NCBI GenBank assembly: GCA_016208745.1
Contig: JACQXN010000020.1
Coordinates: 9,062-73,061, forward strand
Length of the DNA: 64,000 nucleotides
From: Candidatus Portnoybacteria bacterium
GTDB taxonomy: Bacteria > Patescibacteriota > Minisyncoccia > Portnoybacterales > GWB1-42-6
Direction: 5' to 3'
Below the pieces are notes generated by a model, which was not told the origin of the DNA, searched no databases, and worked only from the letters and a program-made list of their open reading frames with translations. The position numbers and the translations under genes were made by a program. Positions 7,052-8,275 of this stretch are shown piece after piece (positions within the stretch are counted from its first letter, which is position 1; each line of letters begins with the position of its first letter).

Positions 7052-8275
7052 ATGATTTTTAAGATTATTAAAAAAGATAAAAAAACTAAATTAAGGGCAG
7101 GCCAGATTCAGACAAAAAGCGGGGGTTTCAAAACCCCTGTTTTTATGCCTATCGCAACGCAGGGCGCGATTAAAAATTTAACGCCAGAAGAAGTTAAAAG
7201 TTTAGGCGTGCAAATAATTTTGGGCAATACTTATCACCTTTGGTTGCGGCCCGGAGCAGAAATTATAAAAAAAGACGGCGATTTGCACAGCTTTATGAAT
7301 TGGCCTGGGCCGATTTTGACTGACAGCGGCGGTTTTCAGGTTTTTTCTTTGGGTGAAAGAATGGCAAAAAAAAATAAAGAAACTAGCGGGATTTTGGCGG
7401 CAAACAAAGTAAAATTAACAGAGGAAGGCGTGGAATTTAGAGACCCGATTAACGGCAATAAATATTTTTTAACCCCGGAAAAGTCCATTCAAATTCAACT
7501 GGATTTAGGTTCAGATATTATAATGGCTCTGGATTATTTTCCAGGATTTCCTTGTTCTTACAAAGAGGCGAAAAAATCAGTCGAGCTGACAACGAGGTGG
7601 GCGAGAAGATGCAAGGAGTACTTTGAAAAGAAAATCCACCCCACCACTCCTTTAAAAAGGAGGGAGACAAAAAAGATTTCTTCCTTTGAAAAAGGGAGGC
7701 TAGGAGGGATTTCGCGGCCATTATTGTTTGGCATAATTCAGGGCTCGGTTTTTAAAGATTTAAGAGAGCAGAGCGCCAAGGAACTTTTAGAAATTGGATT
7801 TGATGGCTATGCAATAGGCGGAGTGGCGGTGGGTGAACCAAGAAAATATATGCGGCAGATTTTAGATTGGGCTTTGCCGTTTTTACCAGAAGATAAGCCG
7901 CGATATTTAATGGGCGTTGGCAAACCCGAAGAAATTGTGGGTGCGGTTGCAAAAGGCATTGATATGTTCGATTGCGTGATTCCAACGAGAGAAGCAAGGC
8001 ACGGAAGGATGTACAAATTAAAAAGGAAAAAGGAAGAAATAGAAACGTTAAATAAAAACTTAAAATTTTACGAAACTTTACAAATAACAAATGGTAGATA
8101 TTCTAAAGACTTGAGACCAATTGATAAAAATTGCGATTGTTATACTTGCCAAAATTTTAGCCGCGCTTATTTGAATCATCTTTTTAAAATCCGCGAGCCG
8201 CTAGCTTTGCGTTTGGCCACGATTCACAATTTGAGATTCTATTTGCAATTAATGGAAAGATTAAAAGATTTTTGA
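7052..8275 (+). CDS. tgt: Queuine tRNA-ribosyltransferase (tRNA-guanine transglycosylase) carrying an in-frame palindromic-repeat insertion of about 28 aa
   Basis: Tgt motifs are present ([27 protein letters not shown], zinc site [17 protein letters not shown]). The extra segment [26 protein letters not shown] is encoded by a CCTCC-family repeat at 7631-7712. Confidence 0.9.

Follow-up and report, generated by a model that had tools for sequence, protein, structure and literature searches.

In-frame palindromic repeats are a textbook oddity of Rickettsia; to our knowledge, how such palindromes enter genes and persist in them has never been resolved. The ends of IS200/IS605 insertion sequences are a second point of reference: they carry sub-terminal hairpins on one strand, show no terminal duplication, and act as single-stranded DNA. 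Here we describe a palindromic element of about 82 bp that lies in frame within tgt, the gene for queuine tRNA-ribosyltransferase (Tgt), in a 64,000-nucleotide stretch of a Candidatus Portnoybacteria genome (contig JACQXN010000020.1; the whole stretch is hereafter called the window). In our opinion, the element is a small non-coding palindromic repeat, of the kind represented by repetitive extragenic palindromic (REP) sequences and Rickettsia palindromic elements (RPEs), that has been written into the tgt coding sequence and is tolerated there; we assign this reading a probability of roughly 0.7.

According to the passages that treat them in two later papers, RPEs are palindromic repeats that reside in frame in functional Rickettsia genes (Ogata et al. 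2000, via PMC10969869, PMC3733652); they are about 150 bp long and form ten Rickettsia families (PMC10969869). Intragenic REPs have been catalogued as head-to-head or tail-to-tail pairs encoding 20-30 residues, often in replication or repair genes (Di Nocera et al. 2013, PMC3733652), and two REP superfamilies are defined by an unpaired GTAG or CGTC tag (PMC3733652). The QMITEs of Coxiella and the Correia/NEMIS elements are short non-autonomous repeats with longer terminal inverted repeats and target-site duplications (PMC10969869, PMC5896051). Our literature search, the coverage of which was incomplete, found no description of the present element, nor of repeats resembling REPs or MITEs (miniature transposable elements with inverted repeats) in bacteria of the Candidate Phyla Radiation (CPR).

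The initial annotation placed the element at 7631-7712, and the sequence is indeed present there, with the frame of tgt kept. Reading through it meets no stop codon, one of the three frames being open in its right half and two in its left. Its start falls within the A-rich Lys codons at the end of helix 170-194, and it ends immediately 5' of the codons of the RPLLFG strand; the 27 inserted residues are rich in Pro, Lys, Arg, and Gly. The protein matches solved Tgt chains at E = 1e-115, and in its alignment to one of them, 10fb_A, query residue 192 is aligned with chain residue 175 and query residue 222 with chain residue 180, so that residues 193-221 (7628-7714) stand opposite just 4 chain residues. 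This unmatched segment, which coincides with the element, has no counterpart in any solved Tgt structure, whether bacterial, human, or archaeal, or in most Parcubacteria Tgts; in many of the latter, the flanking anchor motifs are 10-12 residues apart (e.g., DKKVGEQKNR). Among orthologues, the segment is shared only by close relatives (Tgts 70-77% identical), in which the DNA is intact palindrome rather than coding sequence that has diverged; it is a DNA copy of a dispersed palindromic family, which supports the earlier proposal that the extra peptide is a repeat-derived insert. An AlphaFold2 model built on a 39-sequence alignment has the Tgt fold (predicted template modeling score, 0.81; template modeling score to solved Tgt structures, 0.77-0.83) and predicts that the insert is an unstructured, disordered loop: the predicted local distance difference test (pLDDT) score is below 50 for residues 198-219, and residues 195-223, which join helix 170-194 to strand 224-229, lack secondary structure.

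Of the two faces of a beta/alpha barrel, one is catalytic, and loops that lead from a helix into a strand lie on the other. The barrel topology of Tgt would place the insert loop on that opposite face, where its presence would be harmless. The initial annotation also held that the zinc site and the catalytic residues downstream are intact. The former part stands: the zinc ligands, which we take to be C361, C363, C366, and H392, are all present in the window Tgt, and C361, C363, and H392 are invariant, C366 nearly so, among the 39 aligned Tgts. The latter part does not: where E. coli Tgt has its catalytic Asp (KPED), the window Tgt and 38 of 38 aligned Parcubacteria relatives have Glu (KPEE, E293-E294, 7928-7933). 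E294 is a clade-wide substitution of the presumed nucleophile. It should be noted that two more loops of Tgt are variable, namely residues 104-119 (7361-7408) and 326-341 (8027-8074), that both hold long repeat-like inserts in other Parcubacteria (e.g., FSAELAPQNAGLKQSRCEKLAPAP and SSTKPRSCGARGEVLDSSRFAGLARTIK), and that Tgt lengths in the Parcubacteria alignment span 340 to 487 residues.

The closest named relatives of the window Tgt are Portnoybacteria, and the window Mfd shows 100% identity to an NCBI protein of a Candidatus Portnoybacteria metagenome-assembled genome, which places the host in the CPR (Patescibacteria). The orthologue DNA compared was that of loci L195, L197, L198 (Tgt P0013), and L199 (Tgt P0028); outside the insert, the first three Tgts are 70-76% identical to the window Tgt, and the L199 Tgt is 72% identical on conserved alignment columns. 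All four have an intact palindrome at the same site, with a perfect hairpin 1 stem in each and a perfect hairpin 2 stem in L195, L197, and L199. The anchor codons are 93 nt apart in the window, L195, L197, and L198 and 102 nt apart in L199, and the right junction before the RPLLFG codons reads GGGATTT|CG in the window, L195, L197, and L199 and GGGATTT|CA in L198. The reading frame of tgt is kept in every insert-bearing orthologue. In L198, two compensating indels enclose a part of the element that is read in a different frame, and L199 has a different left boundary and a left half in a different frame. Moreover, the identical Tgt protein occurs on 3 other contigs, and the element is found at this site in 5 separate assemblies (L195, L196, L197, L198, and L199).

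The same site is in different states in close relatives. Thus, no insert is present in the Tgts closest to P0013 (79% identity), and the Tgts of L199 and L200 (P0058) are 86% identical, yet L200 lacks the element; its site is filled by another short A-rich sequence, and no clean insertion boundary can be read from the comparison of the two. Many Parcubacteria Tgts have quite different repeat-like peptides there (e.g., ISNFQFPISKQIPNSKSQ and SRGIAAVATRPRNDK). On this sequence evidence, the site is a hot spot for several repeat families, with turnover. A metagenome scan for Tgt loci returned chiefly distant relatives (44-50% identity), which are uninformative on the insert. A query with a 55-residue composite insert gave no candidate proteins, the peptide being too short and of too low complexity for this route, and the 30-residue insert peptide of the window, likewise short and of low complexity, had no match at E <= 0.001 among 1.84 billion representatives.

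The second line of evidence concerns the way in which the insert evolves. The tgt gene is under purifying selection on both sides of it: between the window and L195, identity at codon positions 1/2/3 is 0.80/0.85/0.54 upstream and 0.83/0.89/0.54 downstream, and among orthologues flank identity is 0.69-0.89 for the first two codon positions and 0.46-0.59 for the third. Identity within the insert, by contrast, is 0.67-1.00 and flat across all three positions; for evolution of the insert in the manner of synonymous sites, P = 4e-4 to 2e-14 for each orthologue pair. Analogously, the insert of mfd described below is 0.74 identical at each codon position, compared with 0.51 at flanking third positions. 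Over both genes, insert identity between orthologues amounts to 72-95% whatever the codon position, compared with about 50% for synonymous sites in the flanks. Among the orthologous tgt copies, stems and boxes are conserved, loops and spacer vary, and no compensatory double change is seen in the five copies. A comparison of the tgt copy with same-genome and orthologous copies leaves a test of concerted evolution without power, the repeat unit being near-invariant everywhere. Taken together, the substitution patterns suggest that the tgt and mfd inserts are kept or re-copied as DNA and are not selected as protein. Flat identity above the level of synonymous sites excludes an old, neutrally drifting insert as well as selection on the peptide; two options are therefore left, re-copying from the family (by re-insertion or gene conversion) and selection on the hairpin itself.

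The third line of evidence is the family to which the tgt copy belongs. Reading of all candidate sites by eye indicates that the real repeat unit is a half-element, or module, of about 38 nt, in the order AAAT, a C-rich box (CCACCCC, CCCTCC, CTCCCC, or CCCCC), a linker of 2-3 nt, and a hairpin with a stem of 8-9 bp. The unpaired module end reads AAATCC(A/C/T)CCCC plus the linker (AAC, AGC, TAG, TAA, and others). The 5' arm of the hairpin is a pyrimidine run (CCCTCCTTT, CCTCCCTTT, CCCCTCC, or CCCCCTTT) and the 3' arm the matching purine run; the stem sequence varies among module variants, and the complementarity of the arms is always kept. In the family consensus stem, CCCTCCTTT / AAAGGAGGG, the 5' arm is anti-Shine-Dalgarno-like and the 3' arm is a perfect Shine-Dalgarno sequence. 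When strict modules are defined by rule (AAATC, C-rich box, pyrimidine-armed hairpin), a scan of the window yields 15, compared with about 0.1 on average for 30 Markov shuffles, and 4 further degenerate modules identified by eye bring the number to about 19 in 64 kb. The left half of the tgt copy is matched at 27850-27886 with 2 mismatches (0 chance matches expected) and the right half (AAAGGGAGGNNAGGAGGGATTT) at six places (0.01 expected); a repeat finder clusters copies at 7626, 21294, 27845, 36129, 55629, and 57521.

Modules occur in both pairings and singly. Head-to-head pairs, which are palindromes of 76-82 nt, start at 7631, 21298, 27850, and 56320, tail-to-tail pairs at 36046, 54164, and 57471, and solitary modules at 17888 and 55635 (Table 1). 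As single strands, full copies fold 2-4 standard deviations better than shuffles. The initial annotation listed two intergenic copies. The one between parA and parB is such a copy and occupies the apex of an unrelated, larger palindrome (27805-27963); the one at 21298-21375 is real but not purely intergenic, in that it supplies leuS with its GGGAGG and its ATG (21366). At the gathering score, Rfam 15 matches nothing in the window but a tRNA, and relaxed searches give generic hairpin noise far below threshold.

Two further essential genes in the window carry in-frame palindromic inserts. In mfd, 43 residues stand where the M. smegmatis Mfd structure 6ac6 has 3 and where most Mfd homologues have an 18-residue linker. 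The rearranged copy that had been reported at about 36050-36172 resolves into two modules placed tail to tail, at 36135-36172 on the + strand and at about 36048-36110 on the - strand, the latter of which has a 21-nt hairpin (about 36070-36092) within its loop. An Mfd orthologue that is 75% identical (L201) has the same pair with a spacer 12 nt shorter and without the nested hairpin; other close Mfd relatives have other repeat families at the site, or none. The leuS gene has two in-frame palindromic inserts relative to T. thermophilus LeuRS (1h3n), one of a sister module family and one of an unrelated family (Table 1). In other genomes, in-frame palindromic copies are found in alaS, a Mur ligase gene, lgt, and engA (GTPase Der), and copies serve as ribosome-binding sites of leuS here and at loci L004, L012, and L071 elsewhere.

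At least 114 stretches of species-representative genomes match an exact pattern with 26 specified bases, AAATCCACCCC-N2-4-CCTCCTTT-N1-6-AAGGAGG. The hosts among the matches listed include Omnitrophota, Deferribacterales, Seleniivibrio, Methylococcaceae, Smithella, Ratteibacteria, Elusimicrobia, and several CPR lineages, as well as Acinetobacter and Psychrobacter isolates, and many matches lie on contigs of hundreds of kilobases. In 120 copies taken from the matches listed, the G, A, and G after the stem are conserved though the pattern does not demand them, no base is conserved outside AAAT...AG, and loops vary freely; the module end is sharp, with nothing conserved upstream of AAAT. A downstream partner is present in 50 of these 120 copies and an upstream tail-to-tail partner in 37, the usual partner module in other phyla being TTCCCCCTTT..AAAGGGGG-nnn-GGGGGATTT; 8 of 122 copies among the matches listed lie in long open frames, those in alaS, a Mur ligase gene, lgt, and engA among them. 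One contig labelled as a Methanobacteriota archaeon (L080) encodes a bacterial-type EngA/Der (1192-2628) with a module in frame between its two GTPase domains, which makes the archaeal label of this metagenome-assembled genome doubtful; archaeal matches should therefore not be taken at face value.

Nine element-bearing stretches are in viral contigs. At the same locus, two related IMG/VR contigs with identical flanks, L209 (11190-11410) and L210 (3190-3330), have three and two copies of module A, respectively, in an 81-nt tandem unit; a difference of exactly one unit is direct evidence of recent gain or loss. A BLAST search of the consensus element against plasmid and phage collections gave no match, for which the low-complexity filter may be responsible. 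A frequent location of copies is the apex of a larger, genome-specific palindrome or terminator stem (27805-27963 here; L009, L078, and L098 elsewhere). By eye, and thus qualitatively, such nesting applies to about a third of copies; flanking inverted repeats around full copies have an ungapped score of 0.44, barely above the control value of 0.41. The element's own loops can contain further hairpins.

In our interpretation, the insert would be held or refreshed as DNA, most likely by repeated re-copying from other genomic copies, through gene conversion or through re-insertion at a permissive hot spot. Re-copying is favoured over selection on the hairpin because the states of the site differ among close relatives, because the element occurs in many unrelated places and orientations, because compensatory pair changes are absent from the orthologous copies, and because the window tgt copy has stem-breaking changes in both hairpins. 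Spread, the weakest step, could proceed via the hairpin form of single-stranded DNA, as for REPs and their paired hairpin-forming derivatives (REPINs) and for IS200/IS605 ends; such single-stranded action would fit insertion at hairpin apices, and any enzyme would act in trans. No target-site duplication was detected: at each of five alternative boundaries, the k-mers that flank 46 full copies agree no more frequently than permuted ones do. Modularity, sharp ends, and the lack of a target duplication would, by analogy, match REP/REPIN and IS200/IS605-type elements better than cut-and-paste MITEs. More tentatively, and as something possible that we would not call probable, the 38-nt module may be one propagating element, near-identical across phyla, present in viral contigs, copied into hairpin apices and permissive gene loops by machinery encoded elsewhere, and continually re-homogenised; such re-homogenisation would make copies in essential CPR genes evolve more slowly than the genes' own synonymous sites. 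If so, many unexplained length differences among CPR housekeeping proteins would stem from such elements.

Several observations weigh against re-copying and mobility. Four lineages (window, L195, L197, and L198) share the 93-nt spacing with near-identical junctions, which fits one ancestral insertion better than four independent ones, and after one ancestral insertion the slow evolution would call for selection on DNA or RNA rather than re-copying. In L195, whose tgt hairpins are perfect, no second module lies within 21 kb, which leaves gene conversion there without an obvious nearby donor; the stem-breaking changes in the window tgt copy, for their part, imply that it is not being refreshed at present. 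No transposase gene or gene for a REP-associated tyrosine transposase (RAYT) was found among the 52 open reading frames (ORFs) of the window scanned against Pfam, and clustering of all ORFs beside the 114 loci of other genomes yielded no recurrent protein family except generic ones (response regulators, ABC ATPases, and chemoreceptors); the mechanism of mobility is accordingly drawn from analogy, just as the placement of the loop on the opposite face is drawn from topology.

The identical spacing and the isolated, perfect L195 copy keep selection alive as an alternative, in which the hairpins would act in cis as a functional element of tgt and mfd, at the mRNA or the DNA level (possibly an internal pause site of the Shine-Dalgarno type, a signal for mRNA stability or processing, or a hairpin to which a protein binds), and the peptide would be a by-product. 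Such a role would also account for inserts of two genes whose evolution is slower than that of synonymous sites and uniform over the codon positions, for conserved stems and boxes next to variable loops and spacers, for the pairing of a perfect Shine-Dalgarno sequence with its complement in each hairpin, and for the copies exapted as ribosome-binding sites (leuS; L004, L012, and L071). We nevertheless regard it as unlikely: most Tgts and Mfds of the same clade have no insert or unrelated repeats at the site, the same element occurs in unrelated genes and in intergenic DNA in either orientation, both stems of the window tgt copy contain mismatches, and compensatory double changes are lacking among the five orthologous copies. 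A lineage-specific loop selected for its amino acids, such as a basic, flexible tRNA-binding arm to which the repeat resemblance is secondary, could be argued from the Lys/Arg/Gly-rich peptide common to several orthologues (KIHPTPPLKRRE...FKGRLGGIS) and from the frame kept in all insert-bearing orthologues. This is very improbable, since third codon positions are conserved as much as first and second ones and L198 and L199, by reading parts in another frame, make a different peptide from nearly the same DNA; moreover, the segment is predicted to be disordered, is absent in close relatives, and has the same DNA outside genes.

A classical MITE, i.e., a deletion derivative of an insertion sequence with a DDE transposase moved by cut-and-paste via terminal inverted repeats, would fit the size of about 80 bp, the many dispersed copies, and the ends AAATCC...GGATTT, which form short imperfect inverted repeats. 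It is rendered improbable by the lack of a target-site duplication in the 46 full copies at the tested boundaries and by the occurrence of the half-module alone and in both pairings, which means that the pair is not the unit; nor was an insertion sequence with these ends, or a transposase, found near the 114 loci or in the window. Because the contigs of a metagenome-assembled genome, such as the present source, can be mis-joined at repeats, a repeat collapsed into tgt by assembly or binning has to be considered as well, although its likelihood is negligible: the ORF is unbroken and conserved on both sides of the insert, the same protein is found on the 3 other contigs, and the five assemblies with the element at this site are independent and come from other samples.

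Table 1. Positions in the window of the tgt copy and its parts, of the in-frame inserts in mfd and leuS, and of the other copies of the element
Feature	Position	Strand	Basis or remark
tgt, queuine tRNA-ribosyltransferase, 407 aa (host gene)	7052..8275	+	PF01702, E = 1.9e-138
Full element in tgt, head-to-head pair of hairpin modules	7631..7712	+	Encodes Tgt residues 194-220 (27 residues)
Left terminal box AAATCCACCCC	7632..7642	+	Eight window matches at <=1 mismatch
Hairpin 1, CACTCCTTT / AAAGGAGGG	7645..7664	+	One mismatch vs consensus CCCTCCTTT; sequence, fold
Hairpin 2, CTTCCTTT / AAAGGGAGG	7680..7699	+	Decayed vs consensus CCTCCCTTT; sequence, fold
Right terminal box GGAGGGATTT, inverted counterpart of left box	7703..7712	+	Sequence, repeat matches
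Single module, variant AAATCTCCCC-TAG-CCCCTCC..., upstream of tatD	17888..17925	+	Sequence, rule-based scan
Full head-to-head copy	21298..21375	+	Right end is the ribosome-binding site GGGAGG and the ATG (21366) of leuS
leuS insert, sister module family (CCACCCC box and stem CCCCTCCTCAG/CTGAGGAGGGG)	22104..22170	+	About 18 extra residues; perfect 11-bp palindrome
Second leuS insert, unrelated TGTCATTCC...GGAATGACA family	22785-22870		About 40 extra residues vs T. thermophilus LeuRS
Best-preserved full copy, between parA and parB	27850..27925	+	Minimum free energy (MFE) -36.6 kcal/mol, z = -3.1; ParA/ParB domains
In-frame mfd insert, residues 508-550 (43 residues)	36046..36174	-	Compared with M. 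smegmatis Mfd structure 6ac6
Tail-to-tail pair, downstream of gene ending 54162	54164..54245		Repeat finder, rule-based scan
Single module downstream of gene ending 55621, then terminator-like hairpin	55635..55670	+	Repeat finder, rule-based scan
Full head-to-head copy from two other module variants	56320..56396	+	MFE -41.7 kcal/mol, z = -3.6
Tail-to-tail pair downstream of gene ending 57412	57471..57565		Repeat finder, rule-based scan
Composite copy, extra hairpins nested between degenerate left and intact right module	61391..61523	+	Fold, scan

The window, which has about 40% G+C and is dense in housekeeping genes (aminoacyl-tRNA synthetases, ftsA/ftsZ, parA/parB, topA, mfd, and tgt), holds other repeats as well. 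Clusters of the sister family (CCACCCC box and stem CCCCTCCTCA/TGAGGAGGGG) are found in intergenic DNA at 58371-58477 and 62655-62745. The unrelated palindromic family seen in leuS has the form TGTCATTCCCGC-loop-GCGGGAATCCAG, or its inverse; it recurs at 52779-52850, 34829-34856, and 2360-2379 and, in other CPR genomes, as in-frame copies within a Mur ligase (L087) and Lgt (L012). The leuS gene has an in-frame TAG at 21486-21488 (…KKE*ILDMFPYPSG…), where LeuRS normally has Tyr or Phe, and is thereby divided into the same-frame ORFs 21366-21488 and 21492-23987; the TAG could be a sequencing error, a recent nonsense mutation, or a site of read-through.

A third repeat has inverted arms of about 40 nt (CTACGGAATACAGATA...TATACGGATA) at 27805-27844 / 27927-27963 and at 44658-44694 / 44825-44864, which enclose the element in one copy and an unrelated 125-nt centre in the other; it looks like a MITE-like shell with an invaded apex. 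An intergenic repeat of about 190 nt is present in three copies (9970-10159, 25006-25134, and 46192-46385) that are 73-84% identical in pieces, each starting with a 12-bp terminator-like hairpin (GCCACTTTTTGT...ACAAAAAGTGGC). An element of 125-145 nt has two copies (55993-56137 and 63073-63202) that are 80% identical, with a 16-bp closing stem (ACCCCGCAYTTATTCT / GGAATAAGTGCGGGGT), one compensatory pair only, and no Rfam match; a perfect 17-bp hairpin (56202-56237) follows the first copy. The ORF at 56549-57412 contains tandem GGCGGCGAC-type repeats (56740-57340) and encodes a Gly/Asp-rich protein with no Pfam match.

What is known as a Rickettsia behaviour is now seen in at least three essential genes of a CPR bacterium. 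The surprising aspects are the slower-than-synonymous evolution of intragenic copies, the turnover at a hot spot of the same codons, and the identity of the module across phyla. Slow intragenic copies and a near-invariant module point either to active copying and homogenising or to an unrecognised function of the hairpin, and the tgt and mfd sites, which hold different families or none in relatives, amount to a naturally replicated series of gains, losses, and replacements. Such elements make CPR housekeeping proteins longer and variable in length, give rise to spurious ORFs, and can be a source of ribosome-binding sites and start codons, as in leuS; CPR genome annotation and protein-family alignments should allow for them.

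How does the element compare with the systems introduced above? The initial annotation likened it to RPEs and to Correia-like elements. The behaviour of RPEs, as they are described in the passages cited, is reproduced: palindromes are in frame in unrelated housekeeping genes that stay functional (here tgt, mfd, and leuS), the peptide is inserted where the fold tolerates it, and several families are found together in one small genome of a host-dependent bacterium. Membership is another matter. The element is 76-82 bp long and consists of two 38-nt modules that are also found singly, the module occurs in many phyla rather than in one genus, and the intragenic copies are slower than synonymous sites; its size and its host argue against an RPE family member and for a different, shorter, modular element. 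With QMITEs and Correia/NEMIS elements, it shares the possibility of read-through and the capacity to donate promoters, ribosome-binding sites, or terminators, but it has only about 10 nt of imperfect inverted ends (AAATCCACCCC / GGAGGGATTT), compared with the 15-30 bp that a MITE would share with its parent insertion sequence, and lacks the target-site duplication of Correia elements and of MITEs in general.

The likeness to IS200/IS605 ends consists of sub-terminal hairpins without target duplication. No TnpA gene was found among the window ORFs or at the 114 loci, and no conserved target tetranucleotide was detected; the two ends of the element are symmetrical, whereas the left and right ends of IS608 are unlike each other. 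The parallels with REPs, with the mosaics that they form (bacterial interspersed mosaic elements, BIMEs), and with REPINs are a stem-loop unit (20-40 nt) that ends on one side in an unpaired motif and has many genomic copies, head-to-head and tail-to-tail pairs and clusters (tandem arrays in L209), a location mostly after genes, the absence of a target duplication, and intragenic singles or pairs that encode 20-30 residues, mfd being the repair-gene example here. There are differences as well. Neither the window alignment nor the 120 copies from other genomes show conservation of a GTAG or CGTC tag, the unpaired end consisting of AAATCC and a C-rich box; a Shine-Dalgarno / anti-Shine-Dalgarno duplex forms the stem; no RAYT was found among the 52 window ORFs or beside the 114 loci; and the near-identity across phyla goes well beyond the statement that "some families reside in multiple species" (PMC3733652). 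These comparisons support the view that the element behaves like REP and RPE elements but constitutes a distinct family with a cross-phylum module.

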